Under the pieces are notes generated by a model. The model was not told the DNA's origin and did no database searches. It worked only from the letters and a program-made list of their open reading frames with translations. A stretch of 64,000 bases of DNA from Oscillospiraceae bacterium (GTDB lineage: Bacteria > Bacillota > Clostridia > Oscillospirales > CAG-272): positions 4,882-68,881 of the forward strand of contig SVSW01000003.1 of NCBI GenBank assembly GCA_015064095.1, in the 5' to 3' direction. Numbering within the stretch: position 1 is the stretch's first letter; every line of letters starts with the position of its first letter. The position numbers were made by a program, and so were the translations under genes. This document shows positions 1,273 to 39,928 of this stretch, in pieces.

Positions 1273-3026
1273 ACCGCCGTCTCTTTCGGATTTATCCCGC
1301 TTTCGTAAAGCTGCTTATAGAAGCCGCCCCGTTCGATCAGCTCGTCATGATTGCCCGACTCAACTATGTTACCGTCACGCATAACGAGTATAAGGTCGGC
1401 ATTTTTAACGGTTGAAAGTCTGTGTGCTACAACGAACGACGTTCTGTCCTTTGTCATATCGTCAAAGCAGCGCGAAATTCTCTGCTCCGTTCTCGTGTCG
1501 ACCGAGCTTGTCGCCTCGTCCAGTATCAGGATCGGGGGATCTTTGAGCATAACGCGCGCGATACATAGCAGCTGACGTTCACCGCCCGAAAGGCTTTCTG
1601 CCCCGCTGACGACCGTATCGTAGCCCTGAGGCAAACGTGAAATAAATCCGTGTGCGTGTGCGTTTTTGGCAGCTGCAACTATCTCCTCATCCGTGGCATC
1701 GGGTTTGCCGATAGCTATATTCTCCCGTACAGTTCCGGGCATTATCCACGTATCTTGGAGCACCATTCCGAAATTCTCTCGCAAGCTGTGGCGCGTCAGC
1801 TCACGGATCTTTTTGCCGTCCACCGAAATATCGCCGGACTTTGTATCGTAAAACCTCATAAGCAGGTTTATAAGAGTAGTCTTTCCGCAACCCGTCGGAC
1901 CGACTATTGCGACCTTCATACCTGATTTTATATCAAGGCTGAAATTTTCGATAAGCGGCTTTTCGGGAACATAAGAAAAGCTGATATTATCAAACGAAAT
2001 ATCACCTTGCGCCACGCCCAAGATCTCATTTTCGCCATCATAGGTTTCGGGTGTTTCATCTATCAATGAGAACACACGCTCTGCTGCCGCCGCAGCACCC
2101 TGAAGCTCCGTGATAACGCCCGATATCTCGTTGAACGGCTTTGTGTACTGATTTGCATAGCTGAGCATACAAGTCAGAGTTCCGACCGTAAACGCAGGAT
2201 TTACGAGCGCCGTCATCGCGCCGACCAGTGCCACGATCGCATAAACGATATTATTTACAAATCGCGTCGTAGGATTTGTCAGTGATGACCAAAACGTTGC
2301 CTTCAACGAAACATTTTGCAGTTTTTTATTAAGAGCATCAAATTCCTCTTGCGTCTTTTTCGCGCGAGAAAATGTGCGGACGGTCTTTTGCCCCCTGATC
2401 ATCTCATCGGCATATGCGGTCTGCTCACCGCGCACGCGCGCCTGCTCCTTGAAAAACTTATATGTTTTCGAGGAAACGACCTTCGCAACTACCATTGAAA
2501 GCGGCGTGAGAACAAGCACAACAAGTGCGATTATAGGCGATTCGATAAACATAATGACAAGTGTTGCAATTATCGTTGCAATACCAGTAAATAGCTGTGT
2601 AAAGCCCGTCAGAAGCCCATCGCCGACCTGCTCTGCATCAGATGTGACCGATGAAACGATATCGCCCGACGCACGTCCGTCAAGATATGAGAACGGCAAG
2701 CTCTGGAGCTTATCAAATGCGGCGCGGCGCAGGGCGCACACCGTGCCTGCGGAGATCCTGTTATTTGCAAGATTCATAATATACTGCGCAATCGCCGCCG
2801 CGCCCGTTGCAATACCGATCTTTATAAGAAGATCAAATATAGCTTTGAAATCAACGCGTCCTGCGTCGATCGCACAGTCGATCGCCTGACCGACGAAAAC
2901 GGGGATCAAAAGCGAACCTGCAACATAAATTATCGCGCAAATAACGGTTACGGCAAAAAGAACAATATACTTCTTTGAGAATCCCATAAGGCGCACGATG
3001 GTCGCTCCGGTGTTAGTCTTTTTCAT
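1269..3026 (-). CDS. ABC exporter, fused permease/ATPase subunit (heterodimer partner 2)
   Basis: TM domain plus Walker A GPTGCGKTT, signature LSGGERQ and Walker B ILILDEATS. Start moved to the internal ATG (MKKTNTG) that gives an ATGA overlap with the upstream gene. Confidence 0.85.
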   Translation of the reverse strand: MKKTNTGATIVRLMGFSKKYIVLFAVTVICAIIYVAGSLLIPVFVGQAIDCAIDAGRVDFKAIFDLLIKIGIATGAAAIAQYIMNLANNRISAGTVCALRRAAFDKLQSLPFSYLDGRASGDIVSSVTSDAEQVGDGLLTGFTQLFTGIATIIATLVIMFIESPIIALVVLVLTPLSMVVAKVVSSKTYKFFKEQARVRGEQTAYADEMIRGQKTVRTFSRAKKTQEEFDALNKKLQNVSLKATFWSSLTNPTTRFVNNIVYAIVALVGAMTALVNPAFTVGTLTCMLSYANQYTKPFNEISGVITELQGAAAAAERVFSLIDETPETYDGENEILGVAQGDISFDNISFSYVPEKPLIENFSLDIKSGMKVAIVGPTGCGKTTLINLLMRFYDTKSGDISVDGKKIRELTRHSLRENFGMVLQDTWIMPGTVRENIAIGKPDATDEEIVAAAKNAHAHGFISRLPQGYDTVVSGAESLSGGERQLLCIARVMLKDPPILILDEATSSVDTRTEQRISRCFDDMTKDRTSFVVAHRLSTVKNADLILVMRDGNIVESGNHDELIERGGFYKQLYESGINPKETAV

Positions 3027-4756
3027 ATAGACGCACCTCCCATCTGCGAGTCGCAGATCTCGCGGTATATCTCGCAAGCTGCGTAAAGCTCTTCATGAGA
3101 GCCGACTCCGACAGGCTCTCCGCCGTCAAGCACGAGTATTTGGTCGCAACCCCGCACACTTACGGCGCGCTGAGAAATAACGAGCACCGAAGGAGCAAAA
3201 TCAAGCTCCGATATGGCGCGAAGCAGATTTGCCTCCGTCAGTTGATCAAGCGCCGATGAGCTATTGTCAAGTATGAGTATCTCGGGGCGGCGCACAAGTG
3301 CGCGCGCGATGGTCAGCCGCTGGCGCTGACCTCCCGAAAGATTTCTTCCGTTCTGCCCCACCTCAATATCGAGCGTGTTTTCCTCACCGGATTTGATCTC
3401 CTTCAACTGTGCTGCATTGAGAGCCGCCATTATTTCCTCGTCCGTCGCATCGGGCTTGCCCCATTTAATATTATCGCGCACCGTGCCGCGGAAAAGCTCA
3501 ACATTTTGCGCAACGTATCCGATCCTCGAACGAAGCTCGGTCTCCCCGTATTCACGTACATTCCGTCCGTTAACAAGTACCTCCCCGCCCGTTGCATCAT
3601 AAAAGCGCGGAATAAGCGCAGCAAGTGTGGTCTTACCCGATCCCGTGCCACCGATAACGCCTAACTTTTGACCTTTTTTGAGTGTAATATTTATGTTTTT
3701 GAGCGCATCGCCAGACGCGCCGGCATATCTGAAATCAACGTCACGAAGCGAAAGCACGGGTGCGTTCGCATCGACCGTATTTGTGCCGGCAACCTTAAGC
3801 ATATCCGCATTTTCGTCCATGACCGCGGAAATTCTTCCGGCGCAAGCGATAGATTTTGTTACCGTGATGATCAGGTTAGCCATTTTGATAAGCTCAACGA
3901 GGATCTGCGTCATGTAATTGTAAAGTGCGATCATCTGTCCCTGTGTGAGAAGTCCCGTGTCAACTCCGTCCGCACTGTAATAAAGGAGCGCGATTATCGC
4001 GATATTTATAATTACATAGGTCAAAGGATTGAGAAGTCCCGAGATGCGGCCCGCAACGATCTGCATTTTCGTCAGGCTTTCGGAGCGCTCGGCAAACTCG
4101 GCATTTTCGTTATCCTCCATGCAAAACGCGCGGAGCACGCGCGCGCCCGCAAGATTTGAGCTGACCTTACCCGTCACCGCATCGAGCTTCGTTCGCGATT
4201 TTCTGTATAGCGGTACTCCCGCAGTCAAAATTATAAAAACCACAACGAGCAAAACGGGGATCGTTACGGCAAAAACCGCAGCCGTGGCAGGGGCTGCCGC
4301 ACCAACGGCAAAAGTCATGATCATCGCACCGAAAACGACAAAGGGCGAGCGCAAAAGTAGGCGCAAAGTGAGATTTATGCCCGTCTGCACCTGGTTTATA
4401 TCGCTTGTCATTCTCGTGATAAGTGTTGGAGTTCCTATTCTGTCAAGCTGAGGAAAAGATAGTGTCTGAATTTTCTCAAAAAGAGCTGAGCGCAGCTCTG
4501 CCGATGCACCGCAAGCGGCTTTTGCGGCAAAATACTGTGCAGTAAGCGCGCAAGCAAGCCCTGCTGCTCCCATAATGATAAGGAGCAAGCACATTTTAAC
4601 TATGTAACTCCTATCTCCGTTCGCAATACCGATATCGGCAATAGACGCAACAACAAGCGGCACGGAAAGCTCGAGCACCGCCTCAAACAGTTTGAATAGC
4701 GGACCGATTATTGCGTGCACGCGGTAATTTTTAAGATATTTCAATACTTTCTTCAT
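3023..4756 (-). CDS. ABC exporter, fused permease/ATPase subunit (heterodimer partner 1)
   Basis: 577 aa. TM domain plus Walker A GGTGSGKTT, LSGGQRQR and ILILDNSSSALD. Confidence 0.85.
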   Translation of the reverse strand: MKKVLKYLKNYRVHAIIGPLFKLFEAVLELSVPLVVASIADIGIANGDRSYIVKMCLLLIIMGAAGLACALTAQYFAAKAACGASAELRSALFEKIQTLSFPQLDRIGTPTLITRMTSDINQVQTGINLTLRLLLRSPFVVFGAMIMTFAVGAAAPATAAVFAVTIPVLLVVVFIILTAGVPLYRKSRTKLDAVTGKVSSNLAGARVLRAFCMEDNENAEFAERSESLTKMQIVAGRISGLLNPLTYVIINIAIIALLYYSADGVDTGLLTQGQMIALYNYMTQILVELIKMANLIITVTKSIACAGRISAVMDENADMLKVAGTNTVDANAPVLSLRDVDFRYAGASGDALKNINITLKKGQKLGVIGGTGSGKTTLAALIPRFYDATGGEVLVNGRNVREYGETELRSRIGYVAQNVELFRGTVRDNIKWGKPDATDEEIMAALNAAQLKEIKSGEENTLDIEVGQNGRNLSGGQRQRLTIARALVRRPEILILDNSSSALDQLTEANLLRAISELDFAPSVLVISQRAVSVRGCDQILVLDGGEPVGVGSHEELYAACEIYREICDSQMGGASI

Positions 4757-4823
4757 CTTGACGTCCCAATTTTACATATTTAGTATATTATACTACATAT
4801 TACCGAATTTTTCAATAGATAAA

Positions 4824-4849
4824 GAAAAAAAGGTCAGCACAGCTGACCC
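4824..4849 (-). terminator. Rho-independent terminator after the 149-aa gene
   Basis: GGTCAGC/GCTGACC stem (4832-4838 / 4842-4848) followed on the minus strand by a T-run (A-run 4824-4831 on plus). Confidence 0.6.
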
Positions 4850-4854
4850 GTTTT

Positions 4855-5304
4855 TCAAAGAAAGACCTTCATCTTTTCGATATTCTTTTCCTCAAATTTA
4901 ACAATATCGCGTGCAAGCGAGATCTCGTCGCAGCCGCCACATTCGTCCTCGGATTCATGGATCTTGCGAAGAAGATCGGTGATATTCATGGTCGAGCCTT
5001 GGATCATCATTTCTGCGATGTGACTTGACGTCGAGTCCGCAAGCGTGTTCATTGTAATTCCCATTTTCGCCATCCATTTGCTGAGGGGGGATTCCTCCTT
5101 TGCCTCCTCACCCTTCTTTTTGATAAGAGCCTGGGCCTTTGCCGCAAATTGCTCATACTCCGCAAGCTGTTCGGACATCTCTGCCTTCAGCTTTTCGTTT
5201 TTGACCTTTGGCATAAGAGTCAAAGTGAGATCCGATCCCATACGAACGTTTTTGTAAATAGCCTCGGAAAGCTCACCGAGACGGCTGATTGTTTCTGTTG
5301 ACAT
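4855..5304 (-). CDS. Hypothetical helical protein
   Basis: 149-aa ORF with its own terminator. No motif recognised; charged and helical in character. Confidence 0.5.
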   Translation of the reverse strand: MSTETISRLGELSEAIYKNVRMGSDLTLTLMPKVKNEKLKAEMSEQLAEYEQFAAKAQALIKKKGEEAKEESPLSKWMAKMGITMNTLADSTSSHIAEMMIQGSTMNITDLLRKIHESEDECGGCDEISLARDIVKFEEKNIEKMKVFL

Positions 5305-13756: not shown

Positions 13757-13971
13757 AATACTATCTTGCAATCCGGATTTGAGCGCTTTGCCGCCTTGAT
13801 GACACGTGACATAACATCGTCAAATTCGCCGTCCGCCGCCTCAACCGTCAGCTTTTGCATCATAAAATTAACAGATGCCGAAGTAACCCCCTCGGTTTTG
13901 AGAACTGCACGCTCAAGCTTCGCCGCACAGTTGGGGCAATCAAGATCTTTTATCTTAAAAACTTTTTTCAC
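13753..13971 (-). CDS. Stand-alone heavy-metal-associated (HMA) domain protein
   Basis: 72 aa with a CPNC metal-binding motif (DLDCPNCAAKLE). Confidence 0.8.
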   Translation of the reverse strand: MKKVFKIKDLDCPNCAAKLERAVLKTEGVTSASVNFMMQKLTVEAADGEFDDVMSRVIKAAKRSNPDCKIVL

Positions 13972-14329
13972 TGTCGTTTCTCTCCTCTATTAAATGCTCA
14001 AATCCCTGCGCGATGATCGTGCGAACATGATCGTCTGCAAGGAAATAAAATATCGTTTTTCCCTCACGGCGATTGCCGACAAGGTTTGCGTCCTTGAGTA
14101 CACGGAGCTGATGCGATATCGCAGGCTGGGTCATTCCCAGCAGCTCGGCTATCGCACAAACGCACATCTCGGACTCAAAAAGCGCGAAAAGGATCTTTAC
14201 GCGAGTGGTGTCGCCGAATATTTTAAAAAGGTCCGAAAGATCGCAGATAAGTTCGTCTGTCGGAAGTTCGTCCTTTACCCTTTTAAGTATTTCGTCGTGG
14301 CGATGTTCCATATATAAATCTCCATTCAT
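13955..14329 (-). CDS. ArsR/SmtB-family metalloregulator
   Basis: CVCAIAELLGMTQPAISHQLRVLKDANLV HTH with metal-sensing Cys pair. First gene of the HMA / P-type ATPase operon. Confidence 0.85.
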   Translation of the reverse strand: MNGDLYMEHRHDEILKRVKDELPTDELICDLSDLFKIFGDTTRVKILFALFESEMCVCAIAELLGMTQPAISHQLRVLKDANLVGNRREGKTIFYFLADDHVRTIIAQGFEHLIEERNDSEKSF

Positions 14330-14400
14330 ATGTTTATCTGTTCATATGATAGCACGCTTATATGTTTTTGTCAATACCTTAAATCAAAAAAACGAGGATT

Positions 14401-15507
14401 TTAACTCCTCGTTTTTTCATCATCTTCAAGCGCTAAGGCAAGCACTCGTTGCACGGACGCGGCTTCCTTGAAATTCGGTGTCGCCTCCCTGCCCTCGTTT
14501 ACCGCAGACAAAAAGCTGTACATACTGTGCAGATGTCCGCGCAGCCAGCCGATTGGGGCTTTGAAGGACGGGAATATTCCGCCGGGGGCTTCGTAGCGTC
14601 CGCAGCATTCGATTCGCGTATATCCACGGTCACCGCCAAAGCTGCCGCCTGCGGCTTCTGCGTCATAGAAATAAAGCCAATTAAGATCCATCATTGAGAA
14701 TTTCAGCGAGCCCTTCTCACCGTAAACGGCAAAATTCAGCTCATCATTCGCGCCCACGGTCAGCTTGCTGACGTCGACCGTTCCGACAGCACCGCCATCG
14801 GTCTTACAGATCATATAAAACGCTTCGTCGGCATTTGTCCGCCAGATCTCTCCGTTCCGTCCGCGGCGCTCGGGATATGCTATCTGTGAGCTTGCTTTAA
14901 CGGATATTATTTCGCCGCAAAGATATTGCATCATATCGACTGCGTGCGATCCAAGGTCAAAAAGCGTTCCCGCGCCGCAAATATCGCGGTCCTGCTTCCA
15001 ACCGGCGTTCTTTTCGGGATCTGTGGCACTCGCGTGGAGATATTCGCAGCGGAAGCTGATAATTTTTCCTAGCCTGCCGCTAAATATCAGCTCCTTAGCC
15101 TTCATAACCGCCGGCAAAAAGCGATTGTTGAACACTATCTGCGCGGTTATTCCCTTTTCTTCGGCAAGACGTGCAATATCGGCAGCCTGCTCCTCGGTCA
15201 CGCAAAGCGGCTTTTCGCAATATATGTGCTTTCCTGCCGCGATCGCCTTTTTAAGCGTTTCATAATGATATATATTCGGCGTGCAAATATCTATTACATC
15301 AATTTCGGGATCATTTATGATCTCGTCCTCGCTCGCACCCGTAACGCCGAGGAATTCCGCCGCTGCAGCGGTCGTTTCGGGTCTGCTTGCGCAGACTGCG
15401 GCGATCTCCGCCGAAAACGGCAGGTCGCGGTAAAAATATTTGAGATTGTCAACGCACCATGCGTGCGTTTTTCCCATAAAGCCAAAGCCGATAAGTCCTA
15501 TTTTCAT
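14401..15507 (-). CDS. Gfo/Idh/MocA-family NAD(P)-dependent oxidoreductase
   Basis: MKIGLIGFGFMGKTH Rossmann N-terminus and EKP motif (YCEKPL); 368 aa. Confidence 0.85.
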   Translation of the reverse strand: MKIGLIGFGFMGKTHAWCVDNLKYFYRDLPFSAEIAAVCASRPETTAAAAEFLGVTGASEDEIINDPEIDVIDICTPNIYHYETLKKAIAAGKHIYCEKPLCVTEEQAADIARLAEEKGITAQIVFNNRFLPAVMKAKELIFSGRLGKIISFRCEYLHASATDPEKNAGWKQDRDICGAGTLFDLGSHAVDMMQYLCGEIISVKASSQIAYPERRGRNGEIWRTNADEAFYMICKTDGGAVGTVDVSKLTVGANDELNFAVYGEKGSLKFSMMDLNWLYFYDAEAAGGSFGGDRGYTRIECCGRYEAPGGIFPSFKAPIGWLRGHLHSMYSFLSAVNEGREATPNFKEAASVQRVLALALEDDEKTRS

Positions 15508-15519
15508 CTTAATTTCCTC

Positions 15520-15565
15520 TATATCGATATATAGAAATTATAACCTTTCGCAGCCTTTTTGTCAA
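15520..15565 (-). promoter_or_regulatory. Sigma-A-type promoter plus 12-bp palindrome upstream of the oxidoreductase gene
   Basis: On the minus strand: TTGACA (15565-15560), 17 nt, TATAAT (15542-15537). Perfect palindrome TATATCGATATA at 15520-15531 lies between the -10 and the RBS. Confidence 0.6.
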
Positions 15566-15601
15566 GCAGTGTATTTTTTCTAATAATTTTGAAAATCCCT
15601 C

Positions 15602-15630
15602 TTGATTTTTAGAAAAAGATGTGTTATAAT
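15602..15630 (+). promoter_or_regulatory. Sigma-A-type promoter for the leader / tRNA-Ser transcript
   Basis: TTGATT (15602-15607), 17 nt, TATAAT (15625-15630), with TGT immediately upstream of the -10 (extended -10). Confidence 0.65.
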
Positions 15631-15636
15631 ACATAG

Positions 15637-15845
15637 GCTTTGGAAAATTCCAACAACTAAATATGCACAGTACGCATCATGGAGAGATATCTCGCCTATG
15701 GCGAGAATACCCACACCCTGCGCCTGACAAGCTAGCTTGTCGATCTTCGGGTGGGCTATGCGAAGTGGATTCAATGAGCAAAGCTCATTGCTCCTCGTCT
15801 CATAGAGCTCCATAGTTATGATGCACACTTGTGCATCATAATTAT
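15637..15845 (+). ncRNA. Candidate structured leader RNA of unknown class, co-transcribed with tRNA-Ser
   Basis: Lies between a canonical promoter and the tRNA. Has at least five stem-loops (15690-15706, 15710-15755 enclosing 15726-15741, 15773-15789, 15818-15839). Contains a split copy of the tRNA 5' end. No convincing ORF. Confidence 0.35.
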
Positions 15846-15934
15846 GGAGAGATATCGAAGTGGTCATAACGGGGCTGACTCGAAATCAGTTTGGGAGCAA
15901 TCCCACGTGGGTTCGAATCCCACTCTCTCCGCCA
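15846..15934 (+). tRNA. tRNA-Ser (anticodon CGA)
   Basis: Acceptor GGAGAGA/TCTCTCC, anticodon loop CU-CGA-AA, long variable arm TGGGA-GCAA-TCCCA, T-arm GTGGG-TTCGAAT-CCCAC, discriminator G and encoded CCA. Confidence 0.9.
15876..15931 (+). repeat. Left 56-nt direct repeat (att-like), inside the intact tRNA-Ser
   Basis: 55/56 identical to 19566-19621. Runs from the anticodon stem to the discriminator base. Confidence 0.9.
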
Positions 15935-15937
15935 TTT

Positions 15938-15971
15938 AACCGCAATTCTTGATAAAAGGATTGCGGTTTTT
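15938..15971 (+). terminator. Rho-independent terminator after the intact tRNA-Ser
   Basis: AACCGCAAT / ATTGCGGTT stem followed by TTT. Confidence 0.6.
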
Positions 15972-16117
15972 ACTATTTTGTGGTACAATAATCTCAGTAT
16001 AGCCTCATAGTTAGCTTTGGCTTTTGCCAATCTTGATGCAGAAACGCCTTTTTTGAGAAGTGTATCGCTGCCGATTATCTCTATTGTAGCTCTTGGGGCA
16101 AGTCCTTACATTGTATC

Positions 16118-16348
16118 GTGTGTGATGATTCGTTGAGATTTAATACACCGGAAGGTGTTGTTAGCAAAAACGATATACATTCAATTTCCATTACACACCA
16201 TTGGTCTTACGATGAATTGAAACTCAAAACTCTGCACGGAATGTGCTTTACTTCGGAAATTGAAAATGCGTCAATTTTCGTAATCGATAACGGTTACAGA
16301 AAGAGATATCCACTATCCAAATTAGACTACATTCAATTTGGAAACTGA
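16118..16348 (+). CDS. Small hypothetical ORF, possibly a gene remnant
   Basis: 76 codons from a GTG with no clear SD. The only in-frame ATG is at codon 42. Ends 15 nt before the methyltransferase gene. Confidence 0.3.
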   Translation: MCDDSLRFNTPEGVVSKNDIHSISITHHWSYDELKLKTLHGMCFTSEIENASIFVIDNGYRKRYPLSKLDYIQFGN

Positions 16349-16363
16349 CAAAAGGAGACGGCT

Positions 16364-17647
16364 ATGCTCGAAAGAATGAGTGAATTTTTTGAAAAGCGTT
16401 TGAATGGTTATGATGAGCATATGCTGACAAATATTAAGTCGGCGCGGGAGTTTTATACGTTCACGGCGGAGTGTTTACCCAAGGCGAACGGTTGCCGTGT
16501 GCTTGACTTAGGCTGTGGCACGGGGCTGGAGCTTGAATATTATTTTTCGCTGAATTCTACGGCGCGTGTGACGGGCATTGATCTCTCGCAAGGTATGCTC
16601 GATGCGCTCTCGGCAAAGTTTGAGAACAAGGACATCACGCTTGTTTGTGATTCTTATTTTGCTGTACCTTTGGGCGAGAACGTATTTGACTCGGCCGTAT
16701 CGGTAGAGTCCTTGCATCACTTCACGCAGAAAGAAAAAATACCGCTTTACGAGAAGCTTTGTAAAGCGATAAAAAACGGCGGATATTTTATATTGACCGA
16801 CTATTTTGCTCTGTCTGACGAAGAGGAGCAGATGCATCGAGATACACTTATTGCGCTCAAAAATGAGCAAGGCATCACGGATAGCGAGTTCTATCATTAC
16901 GACACACCGCTAACCGTAGCACACGAGGTTGAGGCGCTTATGGCGGCAGGATTTTCCTCTGTTGATGTGCTTAAAAATTGGGGTGCAACCTATACGCTAC
17001 GCGCTTCGAGAAACAAGGTTTTGAACATTACGAACGGTGATTGCTTCAACGATTATTTTCTATCAAAGTTTGGCGGCGAGGCTGTTCCTTTTTGCGAGGC
17101 GATGATGGACGGTGATACGATATCGGACATCTATTCGGGTGAGTTTATCGAATTGCGTTCAAAGGCGCTTGGCGTGAGTGCCAAGGAATACAAGTCAAAG
17201 ATGCACGTGCAAACCGCGCCTCTTGAGAATTACTCCGAGCTTCGTTTGTGGTTCGGCAAGGATACCTTCTGCCAGACAAATCTGCTCACGCTTCTCGCTT
17301 ATTTGAAGCAGATCGAATACGGTGGGCAGGTCTTTCTCAATTACATTGACGACGAAAACTTCGAGGTGCTTGAGGAGAATATCTCTGTAACGCTTGACTC
17401 GTATAAAAGGATTTACGAAGATATCCTTATAACAAAAAAGCACCCGACAAACTTGGGTGTTCTTGATGCCGAGGGAATAGAATTGTATTTTGATTATCTC
17501 TCTGATACCGGAGCGCTTGCGCAACTTGTGAGAGAAAATTCCGACAAGGATGATTTGAATCTTGTCTGCCTTTTGCTTGAAAACTCAAAGGCATACGGAT
17601 TGTCGGATATACAGGCGGAAATGCTGATTAGAAAATATCGTATTTAG
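16364..17647 (+). CDS. Class I SAM-dependent methyltransferase fused to a DUF1835-like C-terminal domain
   Basis: N-terminal half has motif I VLDLGCGTGLE and post-I/II elements (VTGIDLS, GGYFILTDY). The C-terminal ~210 aa (LNITNGDCF..., LRLWFGKDTFCQTNLL) resembles DUF1835 as I recall it. SD AAGGAG lies upstream. Confidence 0.7.
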   Translation: MLERMSEFFEKRLNGYDEHMLTNIKSAREFYTFTAECLPKANGCRVLDLGCGTGLELEYYFSLNSTARVTGIDLSQGMLDALSAKFENKDITLVCDSYFAVPLGENVFDSAVSVESLHHFTQKEKIPLYEKLCKAIKNGGYFILTDYFALSDEEEQMHRDTLIALKNEQGITDSEFYHYDTPLTVAHEVEALMAAGFSSVDVLKNWGATYTLRASRNKVLNITNGDCFNDYFLSKFGGEAVPFCEAMMDGDTISDIYSGEFIELRSKALGVSAKEYKSKMHVQTAPLENYSELRLWFGKDTFCQTNLLTLLAYLKQIEYGGQVFLNYIDDENFEVLEENISVTLDSYKRIYEDILITKKHPTNLGVLDAEGIELYFDYLSDTGALAQLVRENSDKDDLNLVCLLLENSKAYGLSDIQAEMLIRKYRI

Positions 17648-17677
17648 TGACGTCCCAAACTCGTTTTCTATCACTTT
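17646..17677 (+). repeat. Left copy of a 32-nt imperfect direct repeat bracketing the HTH / acidic-protein cassette
   Basis: AGTGACGTCCCAAACTCGTTTTCTATCACTTT; 29/32 identical to 19424-19455. Confidence 0.8.
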
Positions 17678-17745
17678 CCCGAAAAAATGAGAGCTTATCA
17701 CAGAAGGACGGAAAAGTCCAGCGGAATTTGAAAACAAATAAAATT

Positions 17746-17777
17746 GCCGCTGAGGAATCTTACGAAACCTCAGCGGC
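17746..17777. terminator. Bidirectional terminator between convergent islet genes
   Basis: GCCGCTGAGG / CCTCAGCGGC 10-bp stem with a 12-nt loop. TTT follows on plus; AATTTTATTT follows on minus. Confidence 0.6.
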
Positions 17778-17795
17778 TTTGCTATTTGTTATTTA

Positions 17796-17972
17796 TCAAT
17801 CATCTTCCTCGTCTTCTCGACGCCGTCTTTCTTCCTCTTCTTCCTCTTCGCGCTCACGACGATATTCGCTATCGTCCCAGTTATCTACATATTCTCCGCG
17901 TGTCCAACTATATCCGCCTTTATCTATATCTTCGTATTCACCCGAATCGTAATTATAGCACCATTTTGACAT
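17796..17972 (-). CDS. 58-aa aromatic-rich, hyper-acidic mini-protein
   Basis: ATG at 17972 preceded by GGAGGAG (17980-17987), which is embedded in the end of the upstream gene. Sequence: MSKWCYNYDSGEYEDIDKGGYSWTRGEYVDNWDDSEYRREREEEEEEERRRREDEEDD. Confidence 0.5.
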   Translation of the reverse strand: MSKWCYNYDSGEYEDIDKGGYSWTRGEYVDNWDDSEYRREREEEEEEERRRREDEEDD

Positions 17973-17974
17973 AA

Positions 17975-19225
17975 TCAAAGCTCCTCCAAGTGATCTTTCA
18001 AATTTTTGATTTTATTGTAGGATTCATTTAACTCTTCAATTAAATGTTTGATAATTGGATCTTTTGAATTTTTTGTAGTGTGAGCAATATTAGTGATAAG
18101 TCCGTATGGAACAGACTTGAATTCTGCGGACGTATAGCAACCGCAGAAGCTCACAATATTATCAACATCTGAAAATTTCAAATCATCTTGGCAATGTCTG
18201 ATCCACAATGATTGCCCATATTCCGAAGAATACCAATCATCGTTCTTCAAATTTTTTATCAATTTACAAAGTTTATCATATGTAGTTTTATTGTGTTTAA
18301 TAAGCTTTTTGATAGCGGTTTCCGTAAATTGAGACTTTTCCTCTATGATAAGATCTAACAATTCTGTAATAAACGGATATATAAATGTGTGTTTACTGTC
18401 TCTTCCGTCTTTGTATCTAACTCTGTCTCTGATCTCAAATTCGTCGGTGAAATAATCGAGCACTTCATTACTTGACTTTGAAATATGACGAACCATTCTC
18501 TCATTGTATGATTCATAAAAATCAGTCCCATGGAAATTCAAATAATGAATGAAATAGTACATACCGGTAGTTTCACGTGCTCTTAATGATTCCATCATTT
18601 TAAGGTCGTTATGGTCTGCAGCAAGAGCTATCAAATTCAAGCGCAACTCATCTTCTTCATTTAATTTTGCTTGAAGACCGTAATCTGTAAAGCTTCTATG
18701 CCGTCTCTCAATAGATGTACCTGCGCCAAAGTTGATAACGTAATCATTGTCTTTTCTGCTATCAAACCAAATGTACTCTTTATCCATTAAATATTTTAAA
18801 AGCTCGTAATTGCGAAATTCCAAAGCATAATCAAGAATTGTTTTGCAATACTCATCTTGGTTAAGTATGAGTTTATCCTCACGATTGATAAAAGCTTCCC
18901 ATTCGGCAGGATCCTTTGAAAAGGCTATGGCGTAATTCGTTACACGTTTTGCTTGTGGAACACTATATTCTCCAGCGCTCAAAATCTGCTCACACGAAAC
19001 GCCAAGCAAATCCGTAAATATGGGAAGATCGTAGGTTTGTATAGCCTTTGCGCCTTTTGTGATTTGTGAGATACGGTTTGCCATTTTACGTATTTCCTCA
19101 TCGTTCATAACACCGCCAACAGCATTAATATATGCTTTGCAAAACTGTCGTTTGGAAGGATATTTTTTCTCTATCAGCTCCGAAAGATATGTCCCTATTT
19201 TTTGATTATTTTCATGTTTAAACAT
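17975..19225 (-). CDS. XRE-family HTH protein with a large uncharacterised C-terminal region
   Basis: Start at ATG 19225 (MFKHENNQ), 10 nt after GGAGG. Cro/C1-type HTH-like N-terminus (IGTYLSELIEKKYPSKRQFCKAY...LPIFTDLLGVSCEQIL). I could not assign the remaining ~330 aa; some helical-repeat flavour only. Confidence 0.7.
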   Translation of the reverse strand: MFKHENNQKIGTYLSELIEKKYPSKRQFCKAYINAVGGVMNDEEIRKMANRISQITKGAKAIQTYDLPIFTDLLGVSCEQILSAGEYSVPQAKRVTNYAIAFSKDPAEWEAFINREDKLILNQDEYCKTILDYALEFRNYELLKYLMDKEYIWFDSRKDNDYVINFGAGTSIERRHRSFTDYGLQAKLNEEDELRLNLIALAADHNDLKMMESLRARETTGMYYFIHYLNFHGTDFYESYNERMVRHISKSSNEVLDYFTDEFEIRDRVRYKDGRDSKHTFIYPFITELLDLIIEEKSQFTETAIKKLIKHNKTTYDKLCKLIKNLKNDDWYSSEYGQSLWIRHCQDDLKFSDVDNIVSFCGCYTSAEFKSVPYGLITNIAHTTKNSKDPIIKHLIEELNESYNKIKNLKDHLEEL

Positions 19226-19354
19226 GCTCCGAAAACCTCCGTTATTTGTTGGCTCTATTATATCACAAATCAAAATTCAATGATAGTCCACAATTTGCAC
19301 ACACAAAAAGCATATATTATTTTGCCGTGTGCATCGTGTATGCTTTTCGCATAC

Positions 19355-19383
19355 ATTGTAACATATCTTTGAGCTCTCGTCAA
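19355..19383 (-). promoter_or_regulatory. Sigma-A-type promoter for the HTH / acidic-protein operon
   Basis: On the minus strand: TTGACG (19383-19378), 17 nt, TACAAT (19360-19355) with TGT upstream. A second extended -10 (TGATATAAT) lies closer to the RBS. Confidence 0.55.
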
Positions 19384-19423
19384 GTATAAGTTTGAAATTT
19401 GTACAAATAATAAAAGCTGTTTC

Positions 19424-19455
19424 AGTGACGACCAAACCTCGTTTTCTATCACTTT
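19424..19455 (+). repeat. Right copy of the 32-nt imperfect direct repeat
   Basis: AGTGACGACCAAACCTCGTTTTCTATCACTTT; 29/32 identical to 17646-17677, 1778 bp away. Confidence 0.8.
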
Positions 19456-19565
19456 TCTATCAATTTTGCGTTGATTTTGATAGAAGATCTTGAAAAATGG
19501 GGCGAAAACGGGCAAAATTCGGTAGAAAAAGGCACGTAGAGGCACTAAAAGGGATTAAATCCCGA

Positions 19566-19621
19566 TGACTCGAAATCAGTTTGGGAGCAATCCCACGTGG
19601 CTTCGAATCCCACTCTCTCCG
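19566..19621 (+). pseudogene. Displaced 3' fragment of tRNA-Ser (right att-like repeat)
   Basis: Matches 15876-15931 except for G to C at 19601, which disrupts the T-stem. Lacks the first 30 nt of the tRNA and ends GACA instead of GCCA. Confidence 0.85.
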
Positions 19622-19623
19622 AC

Positions 19624-19658
19624 AAAGGGATTAAGTTGAACGCAACTTAATCCCTTTA
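19624..19658 (+). terminator. Hairpin after the tRNA fragment (probable original tRNA-Ser terminator)
   Basis: AAAGGGATTAAGTTG / CAACTTAATCCCTTT 15-bp stem with loop AACGC. Confidence 0.5.
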
Positions 19659-19660
19659 CT

Positions 19661-19688
19661 TTTTCACTATTCACTTTTCACTATTCAC
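19661..19688 (+). repeat. Tandem 2 x 14-nt repeat
   Basis: TTTTCACTATTCAC occurs twice in perfect tandem. Confidence 0.8.
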
Positions 19689-19784
19689 TAAAATTTCGAT
19701 TCAGTTGAGGTAAATATCGGAAAGGTGTTCCACGCTGTTCTGTGAACCTCTGCCAAAAAACGGGAAGCTACCGTATCTCAACCT

Positions 19785-20537
19785 TCATTTACTTTTATCG
19801 GCAACGATGAATTGCGTTTTGGAAAACCGTTTTTTCGTGGAATCGGGAAAATCAAAGTCGCTGATAACGCAATCCACTCTGTCAAAATCAAAAAGTATAT
19901 GCTGCTCGGAATGCTCAAGCTTGTCATGGTCAACCAAATAATACACTTTATCTGCGTTTTTTGACATGACCTCATGCATCAGCATATAGTCGCTATCCCA
20001 AATTTTTCCGTCAGCGGTTACTCCGCCTGTGGAAAAGAATAGCTTATCGGCATGAAAATGCAAAAGATTACTGACCGTGATGTCCCCCAAAAGCATGTGC
20101 GGTTCTTCAAAAACGGGGCCTCCCAGGCAAATAACGCGAACTCCGTACTGACTTAAATAGGACACCAATGCCATATTGTTCGTTATGATCGTAACGTCCT
20201 TGATCGCCGCGATGTATTCTCCCATTATCTGCGTTGTGGTCGTGCTGTCAATAAATACCGTGTCGCCGGGGTTTATCATTTCGCATGCAATTCTTGCAAG
20301 GCGTCTTTTTTCCACGCGCATTTTATTATAGCGGTAGACTAACGGCACGCTCTTTTGCTCAACAACCTCCGCTCCCCCGTACGTGCGCTTTATCTGTCCT
20401 CGCTTTTCGAGCAGATTGAGATCTCGGTTAATGGTGGCGCTGCTGTAATGAAGGATGTCCATCAACTGCTTGACGGTTACGTAGCCTCGCGCGTTTAAAA
20501 TTTCAAGCAAGCTATCCAATCTCTCTTTTTGATACAT
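19785..20537 (-). CDS. DeoR/GlpR-family transcriptional regulator
   Basis: N-terminal HTH (RLDSLLEILNARGYVTVKQLMDILHYSSATINRDLNLLE) plus a sugar-phosphate-binding C-terminal domain; 250 aa. Confidence 0.85.
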   Translation of the reverse strand: MYQKERLDSLLEILNARGYVTVKQLMDILHYSSATINRDLNLLEKRGQIKRTYGGAEVVEQKSVPLVYRYNKMRVEKRRLARIACEMINPGDTVFIDSTTTTQIMGEYIAAIKDVTIITNNMALVSYLSQYGVRVICLGGPVFEEPHMLLGDITVSNLLHFHADKLFFSTGGVTADGKIWDSDYMLMHEVMSKNADKVYYLVDHDKLEHSEQHILFDFDRVDCVISDFDFPDSTKKRFSKTQFIVADKSK

Positions 20538-20592
20538 ATTTCTTCCTCTTTTTTGATAATTTTTGAGAAAATCTCTTTATTTTGGACATATA

Positions 20593-20644
20593 TTGAATAT
20601 TTTTGAAAATTCTGCTATAATTATATCAACATTTGCAAAAATGT
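20593..20644 (+). promoter_or_regulatory. Promoter and palindromic candidate operator upstream of the dehydrogenase-aldolase pair
   Basis: TTGAAT (20593-20598), 17 nt, TATAAT (20616-20621). Inverted repeat ACATTT-GCAA-AAATGT at 20629-20644. Confidence 0.5.
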
Positions 20645-20674
20645 CAATAGATTTCATAATATTGGAGGAAACTC

Positions 20675-21718
20675 ATGAAATTACTTGTCATTCACAGATC
20701 CGAAGAAGTGTTTGAACTCATGAAGGAGTTTTGTGAAAATTCAACCGAGCAGTGCTTCCGTGAGCTTGAGCTGGACTACGTAAAGGACACGGCTCCCCTG
20801 CGATTCGGAGCCATCGTTGAATATTGCATGAAGATGGAAAAGGAAGGGCCTGAATGGTTGGAGCCCGACCCGCTCGTGCTTGAAAAGGTTGCCGACGCCG
20901 ACATTATTTTGACCGAGCACGGCGGAATTAACAAAAAGGTCATCGACAGCGCAAAAAATCTGAAAATGATTGCCACCCTTCGCAGCGCAGCCGAAAATAT
21001 AAATGTCAAATATGCAAAGGAAAAAGGCATTTGCGTCAGTGTATCGCCCTCCAGACTCGGAGCTGCGGTTGCCGATATGACGGTTGCCATGATCCTCTCG
21101 GAATGCAGAGGCCTTCTGCGCCGCAACCTGAGATATAACAACGGTGAATGGGTCGAGGAGAAATACGACGATGCCAGCCACTGCGTTCTTTCTAACTTGA
21201 AGATCGGTCTTGTGGGCTACGGCGGAATTGCACGCATCGTTGCAAAGAGATTGATCCACGGCTTTGACTGTGAGGTATGTGCATACGAAAACATCACACC
21301 GCCCGAGGTTCTCGAGGCTGACGGTGTAAAGAAAGTTTCCCTTGAGGAGCTTTGCAAGACATGTGATGTCATTTCCTTGCACGCAAGACTGGTTCCCGAA
21401 AACACAGGTATGTTTGGATACGAACAGTTTGCCATGATGAAACCCAACGCGATCCTTATCAACACGGCAAGAGCCGCATTGGTAGACGAGGACGCTATGA
21501 TAGACGCACTGCAAACAGGCAAGATCAGAGGCGCCGCCCTTGACGTTTACCACCACGAGCCTCTGCCTAAGGACTACCCGCTTCTTAAAATGGACAACGT
21601 TACGATGATGCCCCACTCTGCAGGCATGACGGGCGACGTTTACAAAAACACAATAAAGATCATCACCAAGGATATTGCGAAATTCCTTAAGGGTGAAGAG
21701 CTTGGCTTTAATCTGTAA
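20675..21718 (+). CDS. D-isomer-specific 2-hydroxyacid dehydrogenase family protein
   Basis: NAD-binding GLVGYGGIARIVAKRL, a catalytic-region NTARAALVDE...HSAG pattern, and an N-terminal ~60-aa extension. Confidence 0.8.
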   Translation: MKLLVIHRSEEVFELMKEFCENSTEQCFRELELDYVKDTAPLRFGAIVEYCMKMEKEGPEWLEPDPLVLEKVADADIILTEHGGINKKVIDSAKNLKMIATLRSAAENINVKYAKEKGICVSVSPSRLGAAVADMTVAMILSECRGLLRRNLRYNNGEWVEEKYDDASHCVLSNLKIGLVGYGGIARIVAKRLIHGFDCEVCAYENITPPEVLEADGVKKVSLEELCKTCDVISLHARLVPENTGMFGYEQFAMMKPNAILINTARAALVDEDAMIDALQTGKIRGAALDVYHHEPLPKDYPLLKMDNVTMMPHSAGMTGDVYKNTIKIITKDIAKFLKGEELGFNL

Positions 21719-21761
21719 TAAAAAACAAAAAATATAAAATTTAAACAATAAGGAGAAAAAA

Positions 21762-22403
21762 ATGAAATTCGACAAGCAAGCTATCCGCGACGTTCTTACC
21801 GTTGCAAAAAGATTGGACGTAAAAGGTGTTTTGTCCGCGTATGAAGGAAACATCTCCGTTCTCAAAGACGGTCTCGTTTACATAACGCCCAGCGGAAAGA
21901 ACAAGGCGTTCCTTACCGAAAAGGACATCGCGATCTTAGATATGAACGGCAACCAGGTTGGCGGAAGATACCCTGCCAGCTCTGAGTACAAGCTCCACCT
22001 GCACGCATACCAGGTTCGCCCTGACGTGTTCGGCGTAGTACACGCACACCCCGGTTATCTCACGGCGTTCGCGCTGTGCGGCAAGCCCGTTGAGTGCGAC
22101 GCTTATCCCGAAATTCTTGCGGTCTACAACAAAATTGAGGTTGCCGCATACGGAAGACCCGGAACGGACGACATTTACGCAGGGGTTGCTCCGATCCTTG
22201 AGAAGGAAAACATATTCTTGCTTGAAAATCACGGTGCCGTGACAGTAGGAAGCACTGTTTTCGAGGCAATGAACCTCATCGAAACAGCAGAGTCGTCGGC
22301 AAGAATCGTTGCTCTGGCAAATCAGATCGGAACTCCGAAGTATCTGCCCCAGGAAGAGCTTAACGATCTTTACGCAATTCACGAAAAGAGAATGGGAAGA
22401 TAA
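21762..22403 (+). CDS. Class II aldolase/adducin-family protein (fuculose-phosphate-aldolase-like)
   Basis: 213 aa with His-rich metal motif (VVHAHPGYLTAF; LHLHAY). Confidence 0.8.
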   Translation: MKFDKQAIRDVLTVAKRLDVKGVLSAYEGNISVLKDGLVYITPSGKNKAFLTEKDIAILDMNGNQVGGRYPASSEYKLHLHAYQVRPDVFGVVHAHPGYLTAFALCGKPVECDAYPEILAVYNKIEVAAYGRPGTDDIYAGVAPILEKENIFLLENHGAVTVGSTVFEAMNLIETAESSARIVALANQIGTPKYLPQEELNDLYAIHEKRMGR

Positions 22404-22418
22404 CAAAACAAAAATAAC

Positions 22419-38907: not shown

Positions 38908-39927
38908 TTGGAGATTATTTTGTCCGATATTATCAATCTTTCCGAATTTCCGCCTCTTGTGCGTGATTTCGCCAATTACAAATCAGGCATTCAGGGCTGC
39001 TCACCAAAAACCGTAAATGAATATTTGCTCGATCTGCGCACGTTTTTGCGTTTTCTTATCGCAAAAGACAAAAAGATCTCCCCGGATTCAGAGGAATTCC
39101 TCGAAATCGACATTTCGGGGGCAGATCTTCCGTTTTTCGCCTCTATCCGTGCCGAGAACATATACGAATTTTTGATGTATACGGGAAACGTTCGCAAAAA
39201 CATGTGGGCGGCGAAAGCAAGAAAGCTGTCGGCGATCAAGGGCTTTTACAAATATCTCACCTTGAAGCGTTGCCTTATCGAAGAAAATCCTGCGGCAAAC
39301 ATTGAATCGCCAAAGGCTAAAAAGTCGTTGCCGAAATTTCTCACACTTGAGGAAAGCCTGCATTTGCTCGATACTGTGCGATCTGACACTCGCTCACGGA
39401 ATAATGTTCGCGATTATACCATAATCACCTTGTTTTTGAACTGCGGTATGCGTGTTTCAGAGCTTGTAGGGATAAATCTTACCGATCTCGATTCGTCCCT
39501 GCGCTCGCTTCGCGTGGTCGGTAAGGGCAACAAGGAGCGCATCATTTACTTAAACGATGCCTGCCGCGCCGCGATCGAGGAATATCTTTCCATTCGCCTC
39601 GGCGAAAAGCATAAGACCCTTTCGCAAAAGGCTCTGTTTCTCTCGGAGCAGAACAACCGCATGGGGGTCAAATCCGTTCAGTGGACTGTCTATAAATACC
39701 TTGATATGGCGGGATTCGGCTCGCGCCACCTCTCGGTCCACAAGCTGCGCCACACGGCGGCAACACTTATGTATCAATCGGGGGCTGTTGATGTTCGTGT
39801 ACTTAAAGACATTCTCGGTCACGAGCAGCTCAATACCACCCAAATTTACACTCATGTTTCAAACAAAAATATGGAGGACGCCATGCAAATGAATCCTCTT
39901 TCAAAAATAAAGCCTAATGGAGACTAA
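38908..39927 (+). CDS. Tyrosine site-specific recombinase, XerC/XerD-like
   Basis: N-terminal SAM-like core-binding domain, and C-terminal catalytic residues in HKLRHTAATLMYQ...LGHEQLNTTQIYTHV. The start is uncertain (TTG at 38908 or 38920). Confidence 0.8.
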   Translation: MEIILSDIINLSEFPPLVRDFANYKSGIQGCSPKTVNEYLLDLRTFLRFLIAKDKKISPDSEEFLEIDISGADLPFFASIRAENIYEFLMYTGNVRKNMWAAKARKLSAIKGFYKYLTLKRCLIEENPAANIESPKAKKSLPKFLTLEESLHLLDTVRSDTRSRNNVRDYTIITLFLNCGMRVSELVGINLTDLDSSLRSLRVVGKGNKERIIYLNDACRAAIEEYLSIRLGEKHKTLSQKALFLSEQNNRMGVKSVQWTVYKYLDMAGFGSRHLSVHKLRHTAATLMYQSGAVDVRVLKDILGHEQLNTTQIYTHVSNKNMEDAMQMNPLSKIKPNGD

Positions 39928-39928
39928 A

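Follow-up and report, generated by a model that had tools for sequence, protein, structure and literature searches.

In a 64-kb stretch of the genome of an Oscillospiraceae bacterium (the window; overall guanine-plus-cytosine (GC) content 47.7%), we analyzed a 3.7-kb islet that lies at the 3′ end of the gene for tRNA-Ser(CGA) and is closed on its far side by a partial copy of that gene. All coordinates are window positions, and contigs or loci from other genomes and assemblies are labeled between L021 and L157. tRNA genes were located with ARAGORN and cross-checked with Rfam, and repeats came from a repeat finder run over the 8-kb region. The following features delimit the islet (att, attachment site):

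15846-15934, + strand: intact tRNA-Ser(CGA), the sole ARAGORN tRNA in the window (Rfam tRNA, 54.7 bits)
15876-15934, + strand: attL, the repeat copy formed by the 3′ 59 nt of the tRNA (repeat family D1; identical to the tRNA of the L150 empty site)
15938-15968, + strand: islet-side terminator-like hairpin after attL (terminator scan)
19566-19624, + strand: attR, a partial tRNA-Ser copy comprising tRNA positions 31-89, with two substitutions (C19601 and A19622)
19624-19657, + strand: native tRNA terminator (host DNA) after attR (terminator scan; directly after the tRNA in the empty site)

The two tRNA-derived segments, 15876-15934 and 19566-19624, form a direct repeat of 59 nt that is 57/59 identical, a match which at the 3.7-kb spacing (3,690 nt) is far beyond chance; all remaining repeats of the 8-kb region were 35 nt or shorter. 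One mismatch, G15911/C19601, falls at tRNA position 66, in the T-stem pair next to the loop, and breaks the T-stem in the downstream copy; the other, C15932/A19622, turns GCCA into GACA. Identity opens at tRNA position 31, within the anticodon stem; the first 30 nt have no counterpart downstream. The original prediction, made from the sequence alone, had placed the tRNA at 15846-15934, in agreement with ARAGORN and Rfam, and its descriptions of the broken T-stem, the GACA end, the missing 30 nt, the start of identity in the anticodon stem and the separate terminator after each copy were all recovered here. Its 56-nt repeat core, 55/56 identical, was likewise confirmed and extends to 59 nt.

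Empty sites and islet content

A protein search with the DeoR regulator encoded to the right of attR led to a 98%-identical variant (P0121) on L150 and L151, close-relative metagenome contigs from two different European Nucleotide Archive assemblies. In both, only ~600 nt separated the genes for DeoR and a GFO/IDH/MocA oxidoreductase, and tRNA-Ser(CGA) lay in that gap, the order being oxidoreductase, tRNA-Ser, the terminator found from 19625 onward in the window, and DeoR. By BLAST, L150 positions 39-2876 corresponded to window 22409-19566 and positions 2818-4893 to window 15934-13874, and the 59-nt overlap of these two blocks is the tRNA repeat. The junction in L150 and L151 reads ...CTCTCTCCGCCA directly followed by AAGGGATTAAGTTGAACGCAACTTAATCCC (also given as ...CTCTCTCCGCCA followed by AAGGGATTAAGTTGAACGCAACTTAATCCCTTT), with 3,690 bp gone; the attB junction is the tRNA and then AAGGGATTAAG, and the expected attP junction is …GGGATTAAATCCCGA, the 59-nt core and TTTAACCGCAATTC. 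Overall identity of the two contigs to the window was 91-93%, with patches of 99-100%. The repeat boundaries coincided with the indel against the empty site, and because the L150 empty site lacks exactly that DNA, the inserted segment is 15935-19624 (3,690 bp). The same comparison identifies 19624-19657 as the native terminator and 15938-15968 as a hairpin of the islet. The inserted segment takes in the methyltransferase gene described below, a gene of nearly host-like composition.

An empty site in which tRNA-Ser is followed directly by the flank from 19622 on had been predicted, and it was thus found in two independent contigs. A uniform filling between the repeats in all relatives, which had been named as evidence to the contrary, is contradicted by these empty sites and by the differently filled ones considered below. 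As judged from these comparisons, the 3.7-kb islet is best regarded as foreign DNA adjoining the 3′ end of the tRNA-Ser gene. The window strain occurs in the Joint Genome Institute (JGI) samples 3300031555 and 3300024270, and the empty-site relative in ERZ28593489 and ERZ27316163. Exact-protein look-ups of the flanking genes returned only the same-strain contigs L083 and L084 (99.98% identical to the window), both of which bear the islet. DeoR synteny in species-representative genomes was uninformative (15 loci at 45-54% identity, none with a tRNA nearby), and a metagenome scan with DeoR gave a single match, at 46% identity, and no close relatives.

Apart from a cassette in its right half, the islet comprises the following:

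15935-16000, + strand: left (P′) arm, consisting of the hairpin 15938-15968 and a conserved 43-nt motif (15954-15996)
16118-16348: open reading frame (ORF) of 76 aa (homology to L155, L156 and L157 starts only at ~16348-16351)
16364-17647, + strand: cargo gene 1, encoding a 427-aa methyltransferase fusion (Pfam Methyltransf_25/11, E ~1e-16)
19421-19565, + strand: right (P) arm, with repeated TTTTCTATCA / TGATAGAA motifs

Four ORFs, none of them a recombinase or transposase, had been predicted in the islet, and this was borne out by scans of its proteins against Pfam, NCBIfam, PADLOC and PHROGs, none of which returned either function, and by tblastn. Three of the four are credible genes; the 76-aa ORF is probably not one, because it is not conserved in relatives. 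The predicted AT-richness of the right half also held, its G+C counts (12 in 18001-18060, 32 in 20821-20880) being exact: the GC content was 43% in the left part (15935-17642) and 36% in the right part (17643-19565). The sole recombinase found in the window, for which the larger ORFs were surveyed together with the Pfam annotation of same-strain contigs covering 9.5-30.5 kb, was a Xer-type tyrosine recombinase (38908-39927, + strand) 19 kb from the islet. It carries Phage_integrase and SAM_1 domains and scored 223 bits for XerC and 209 bits for XerD, both under the equivalog cut-offs. The next gene, which encodes a MutS domain V protein (39917-41548, + strand), begins within it.

The 427-aa protein combines an N-terminal class I S-adenosylmethionine (SAM) methyltransferase domain with a C-terminal region of ~210 aa for which no family match was found. 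Its homologs were found at 60-97% identity; in L154, the same P′ motif precedes a shorter version of 216 aa. The methyltransferase domain is very common in gut Clostridia, where it stands alone (~235 aa) or is fused to other partners, including GNAT acetyltransferase, kinase-like, HD, nitroreductase, APH and EEP nuclease domains, a fusion pattern reminiscent, by analogy, of small-molecule-modifying enzymes. The 43-nt P′ motif, which is not in the L150 empty site, holds the tail of the terminator and an extended -10 promoter (TGgTACAAT, 15981-15989) pointing at the cargo gene.

The sequence AAAGGGATTAA occurs twice around attR, at 19549-19559 and 19624-19634, that is, just 5′ and just 3′ of the partial tRNA. 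The 5′ copy belongs to the P arm of the element and is also in the P arms of L087 and L157, and the 3′ copy belongs to the host terminator and is also in the empty site; the pair may be due to chance or be the trace of an earlier imprecise excision. On the other side of the islet, the tRNA has a leader of ~200 nt (15640-15845) downstream of a strong promoter (15602-15630, TTGATT-17-TATAAT with TG), and this leader is kept in L150, L087, and L154. RNAalifold predicts 57 pairs in the leader, 12 of them with compensatory double changes, and there are two allelic helix types, one (A) in the window and L087 and the other (B) in L150 and L154. The leader opens with GGAGAGATATC, as does the tRNA, and its closing 20-bp hairpin (15808-15849) extends into the 5′ end of the tRNA; no Rfam family was found for the leader.

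A nested two-gene cassette

The islet proved to be composite. A second pair of direct repeats, termed DR35, lies within it and encloses an AT-rich unit with its own promoter and terminator:

17643-17677, + strand: DR35a, the left inner 35-nt repeat (repeat family D3, 31/35; overlaps the methyltransferase stop codon)
17678-19420, - strand: AT-rich two-gene cassette of 1.78 kb (missing in L156 and L157; 36% GC)
17733-17790, - strand: cassette terminator hairpin
17796-17972, - strand: gene for a highly acidic 58-aa protein (begins 2 nt past the stop of the 416-aa gene)
17975-19225, - strand: gene for a 416-aa protein with an XRE-type helix-turn-helix (HTH) and ankyrin-like repeats (start at 19225)
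19337-19355: operator-like palindrome TGTATGC-N5-GCATACA, upstream of the 416-aa gene
19383-19378 (TTGACG) and 19360-19355 (TACAAT), - strand: cassette promoter (terminator/promoter scan; conserved upstream region)
19421-19455, + strand: DR35b, the right inner 35-nt repeat (repeat family D3, 31/35)

Two related loci have the same unit with no cassette. In L156, a methyltransferase gene (DNA 85% identical) is followed by only one DR35 and then by the P arm and a partial tRNA copy, and this order recurs in L157, where the methyltransferase DNA is 97% identical and positions 1104-2432 and 2398-2567 correspond to window 16349-17677 and 19421-19587, respectively. Because DR35 is single in both, segment 17678-19420 is either a nested insertion in the window or a nested deletion in L156 and L157. 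The single DR35 of L157 equals positions 1-13 of DR35a joined to positions 14-35 of DR35b, based on four variable sites, and this chimera would fit a reciprocal crossover inside the repeat and ancestral polymorphism equally well. Additionally, L090 carries the same cassette between the same repeats with other cargo adjoining. This composite make-up, with a nested 1.78-kb cassette between its own 35-nt repeats, had gone unseen in the original prediction.

The 416-aa protein belongs to a compact family, with 779 matches in a word-indexed search (all ~410-430 aa) and 228 clusters at 50% identity in an exhaustive search (E <= 1e-30), and no functional annotation was present among family members in the searches made. 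The protein itself had no significant Pfam, NCBIfam, PADLOC, or PHROG match. Its AlphaFold2 model (pLDDT, a per-residue confidence score, 78.8; pTM, the predicted template modeling (TM) score, 0.69) matched Protein Data Bank (PDB) structures confidently only for the XRE-type HTH (C.BclI, C.AhdI, and ClgR in Foldseek; probability ~1, TM ~0.7 on target), and sequence profiles gave a weak ankyrin-repeat signal. The palindrome at 19337-19355 is probably the operator of the 416-aa protein itself. The small acidic protein is conserved as MSKWCYNYDSGEYEYIDKDGFSIDRGEYVYNWDDSEYRREEEE...DDW, with a more distant variant ...DGDF...SDNMAMDMDSGELH..SGW.DDD.. as well.

An N-terminal XRE HTH, a helical-repeat body and a small downstream ORF recall the RRNPP regulators (PlcR, PrgX, ComR, Rgg), and the best whole-chain Foldseek matches of the 416-aa model were ComR and PrgX. 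However, these matches were not significant (E ~0.1, TM 0.13-0.18), the repeats look ankyrin-like rather than like tetratricopeptide repeats, and the small protein, which is acidic with ..DDW at its end, lacks a signal sequence. With the HTH alone confident and no signal peptide, the pair was not classed as an RRNPP regulator with its peptide. A cryptic recombinase or transposase was rejected for now, as the 416-aa protein had no such match in Pfam, PDB sequences, or PHROGs and its model resembled an XRE HTH only. We also rejected a phage- or plasmid-borne cassette, there being no homolog in INPHARED phages, PLSDB plasmids, or IMG/VR, and conserved termini of the insertion-sequence kind, since no motif was shared at the inner ends on inspection.

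The conserved cassette block was present in 55 species-representative genomes in varied contexts, and pairwise blocks ended at the promoter (~-140) and just past the small gene (~+140 to +190). Its neighbors included Wadjet JetC/JetD in L128, GmrSD, WYL, and AAA genes in L094, a type I restriction-modification system in L090, and ordinary redox genes in L107. Five family loci adjoined tRNA-Ser(CGA) or a partial copy of it (L087, L090, L094, L100, and L108), and a few more distant members were beside other tRNA genes. The restriction-modification locus of L090 (13892-21254, downstream of the cassette) has several hsdS genes and split tyrosine-recombinase ORFs (20325-21143), giving it the appearance of a phase-variable shufflon.

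In a minority of loci, tight direct repeats flanked the cassette, their sequences being unrelated to each other and to DR35:

L101, 9736-9757 and 11413-11434: 22 nt
L107, 2418-2470 and 4095-4147: 53 nt, a terminator hairpin plus TTGAC
L128, 9819-9860 and 11623-11664: 42 nt, a perfect palindromic terminator
L130, 9791-9807 and 11541-11557: 17 nt

Two of these four repeats are complete terminator hairpins; most other family loci had no flanking direct repeats. On the basis of the 17-59-nt flanking repeats, which differ among the window, L090, L101, L107, L128, and L130, and of the unoccupied L156 and L157, the cassette might be read as a new kind of mobile unit that has no recognizable recombinase and inserts through reciprocal recombination into short sites, in many cases entire terminator hairpins, a proposal which we consider doubtful. 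Under that proposal, the 416-aa protein itself or a host function would perform the reaction. The cassette could also be an uncharacterized defense or regulatory module.

Related islets at tRNA-Ser(CGA)

A 34-nt core of the tRNA occurred in 67 species-representative genomes. In L030, L040, L050, and L067, a partial copy was present instead of a complete tRNA; it started at GACTCGAAAT (tRNA position 32) and was preceded by unrelated DNA, and a start at position 31/32 was also seen in L087 and L090. Because this left boundary is constant in unrelated genomes, it points to a defined attP core. Beside the partial copy of L040 were two HTH_17 genes, ParA, and a ParB-like gene, such that its interior looks like an integrative and conjugative element (ICE) or an integrative and mobilizable element (IME). 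In L046, a 397-aa tyrosine integrase was encoded directly 3′ of tRNA-Ser(CGA) and oriented toward it. Together, these loci mark tRNA-Ser(CGA), at the level of sequence, as a recurrent target of tyrosine-integrase elements in Clostridia.

Sister islets were present in L087 and L090, which encode 416-aa homologs at 89-91% identity within a block 85-88% identical at the DNA level to window 17643/17714-19626. In this shared block, the 416-aa and small genes with their promoter are joined to a 185-nt arm (the P arm) and the partial tRNA copy. Past the partial copy, the host DNA differs, encoding DeoR in the window, a chromate transporter and Rnf genes in L087, and an RNase_T-domain protein in L090. 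Partial copies carry the variable arms of different tRNA-Ser, and those in the window and L087 match their own resident tRNA. L087 harbors a tandem array: the tRNA, a segment with DUF2971 and 257-aa genes, a copy of positions 9-89, a second islet (cyclase, small gene, and 416-aa gene), and a copy of positions 31-82. Its attR copy has drifted by 2 substitutions in 52 nt and a diverged 3′ end, and the copy in L157 is degenerate.

The arms of these islets are conserved. The P arm, always directly 5′ of a partial tRNA-Ser copy, was 84-93% identical in L087, L090, and L157 and 71% identical in L156, and the P′ motif was 92-98% alike after tRNA-Ser or partial copies in L087, L090, L152, and L154. 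The motif faces differing cargo (a methyltransferase, a cyclase, or an RNase_T-domain gene), the L152 contig ending just past it. Remnants of an integrase were present in three sister islets. Specifically, L154 1934-2047, between cargo and cassette, retains 38 codons of an integrase C-terminus with the catalytic-tyrosine motif LGHSDIGTTGNIYSHL, which are 54% identical to residues 344-380 of the L046 integrase (E 5e-9), and L087 and L090 retain the last ~17 codons of the same integrase gene, L087 having an excisionase-like ORF as well. The sister islets thus appear as successive decay stages of one element family, of which the window islet is seemingly the most reduced.

Other copies of parts of the tRNA were also present at this gene. 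Copies of its 5′ half (positions 1-43) were upstream of tRNA-Ser(CGA) in L021, L024, L029, and L062, and short copies (19-33 nt) of its 3′ end were downstream in L039, L047, L077, L094, and L156, which suggests that further, different att types exist at tRNA-Ser(CGA).

Origin of the islet

Taken together, the islet is probably a decayed remnant, resembling a cis-mobilizable element (CIME), of a tyrosine-integrase element that targeted tRNA-Ser, and it carries the nested cassette. We infer the original integration, the history of deletion, and the present mode of spread as follows. An element whose attP held a copy of tRNA positions ~31-89 would have recombined with the tRNA gene, rebuilding an intact tRNA at attL and leaving the partial copy at attR. 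Later deletions would have removed the integrase/excisionase module along with most other genes, sparing the att repeats, the arms and some cargo. The base unit (P′ arm, methyltransferase gene, DR35, P arm, and attR), which is found alone in other genomes, would have received the 1.78-kb AT-rich cassette at DR35. The islet is immobile by itself and is probably inherited as chromosomal DNA, with gain or loss through homologous recombination of the flanks between strains or through an integrase from a related element. The original prediction had left two options, an integrase that was lost or one that is supplied in trans; loss by decay is favored, because the sister islets retain pieces of integrase and excisionase genes at the equivalent position, and supply in trans is less so.

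Several points weigh against this origin. A tblastn search of the islet with six tyrosine recombinases collected from related loci returned nothing, and since the window islet thus keeps no remnant, a former integrase is deduced only from the sister islets. Because attL does not differ from the empty-site tRNA and the partial copies bear the variable arms of their own hosts, neither the crossover point nor the element-derived copy can be read off, and the empty site of the relative may reflect a precise loss instead of original absence. A search of viral contigs, the sole data searchable, turned up neither an excised circle nor an attP junction. Moreover, identity between the window and L150 varied sharply next to the islet:

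15374-15573: 99%
15574-15873: 80%
19625-19824: 92-94%
19825-20024: 99-100%

The occupied allele is therefore in a short divergent haplotype between near-identical DNA, with similar divergent patches elsewhere in the flanks, and given this mosaic it may have been gained by homologous recombination rather than by integration. Over the full alignment (13874-22409), blocks of 97-100% identity (for example, 20725-21724) alternated with blocks of 80-90%, which suggests frequent homologous recombination in the population.

The strongest competitor of the decayed remnant, although in our view rather unlikely, is an active integrase-less satellite, in which a helper integrase of the same community would move the islet and thereby keep its att sites and arms. 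Conservation of the arms at 84-98% across genomes and irrespective of cargo agrees with such a satellite, as do the presence/absence polymorphism with exact boundaries, the tandem arrays, which accretion predicts, and the integrase-bearing elements at the same tRNA. Set against it are the drift of attR, at 2/59 positions in the window and also in L087 and L157, and the integrase pseudogene stumps of the sister islets, which indicate decay; nor was there a helper integrase in the 64-kb window or a circular junction in the viral collection. Cassette divergence between genomes (75-88% nucleotide identity) was about equal to that of housekeeping genes at the same loci (69-77%) and thus gives no hint of recent long-range transfer.

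Much less probable is that no site-specific recombinase ever acted and that circular or linear DNA with part of tRNA-Ser came in through homologous (Campbell) recombination of the RecA type, duplicating the 59 nt. The inner 35-nt repeat would be explained likewise. Both the chimeric DR35 of L157 and the position of the islet in a divergent haplotype patch speak for such an event. However, the edge of identity at tRNA position 31/32 recurs in at least six unrelated genomes with different interiors, which marks a defined attP core rather than random homology, integrase and excisionase remnants and one full integrase occur at the same tRNA, and ancestral polymorphism accounts for the four variable sites of the chimera just as well. 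Finally, that the downstream copy is the leftover second gene of a degenerate tandem tRNA array amid ordinary host DNA, a possibility raised at the outset for which nothing speaks beyond the repeat itself, can practically be dismissed, as L150 and L151 have one tRNA and no intervening DNA, the copy lacks its 5′ half (positions 1-30) and has a constant start in four unrelated genomes, and the interior is deviant in composition and found in other genomic contexts.

Among known systems, the decayed remnant compares most directly with CIMEs, which keep their att sites, have lost their integration and transfer genes, and accrete in tandem at att sites, as described for ICESt1-related elements of Streptococcus thermophilus (PMC5704250). 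The islet likewise lies between attL and attR repeats that are copies of the target gene's 3′ end and has no integrase, excisionase, or transfer genes of its own, and its relatives have tandem units and decayed integrase genes. Derivation from an ICE or IME may be read from the stumps and excisionase-like ORF of L154, L087, and L090 and from the ICE/IME-like L040, but no remnant is present in the window. Unlike the described CIMEs, the islet resides in an uncultured gut Clostridia lineage and targets tRNA-Ser(CGA); at 3.7 kb it is very small, its nested cassette makes it a mosaic, and any mobilization by a helper would be hypothetical. Tyrosine-integrase islands and prophages linked to tRNA genes (P4-like, Tn916/ICE-type) share insertion into the 3′ part of the tRNA with its regeneration, a repeat starting in the anticodon arm, AT-richness, and an empty site in relatives. 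In contrast to these, the islet has no integrase beside the tRNA and att site, only a promoter-bearing arm and cargo genes.

Two other classes were considered and rejected. For a phage satellite (phage-inducible chromosomal island or P4-like), the integrase, repressor, replication, and capsid-hijacking genes were not found among the three credible genes; in PHROGs, the methyltransferase matched two methyltransferase families only, neither with a satellite function, and the 416-aa and small proteins matched none. For an integrative mobile element exploiting Xer (IMEX; XerCD at dif, 28-bp sites), the flanking repeats are tRNA sequence instead, and DR35 has only a 5-bp AGTGA/TCACT dyad.

The principle, a CIME-like decayed islet at a tRNA hotspot, is already known, and the residual novelty is the nested two-gene cassette. 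The islet nonetheless offers a clean, bounded case, known in both its occupied and its empty allele, of the persistence and reshuffling of small integrase-less islets in uncultured gut Clostridia. At this tRNA hotspot, loci with a full integrase, with stumps of one or with none can be seen side by side, together with tandem arrays and nested cassettes. It may serve in annotating genomic islands that integrase-based detectors overlook. The 416-aa cassette family, for its part, occupies variable regions, sometimes near defense systems, and shows repeat-flanked insertions with no encoded enzyme to explain them.

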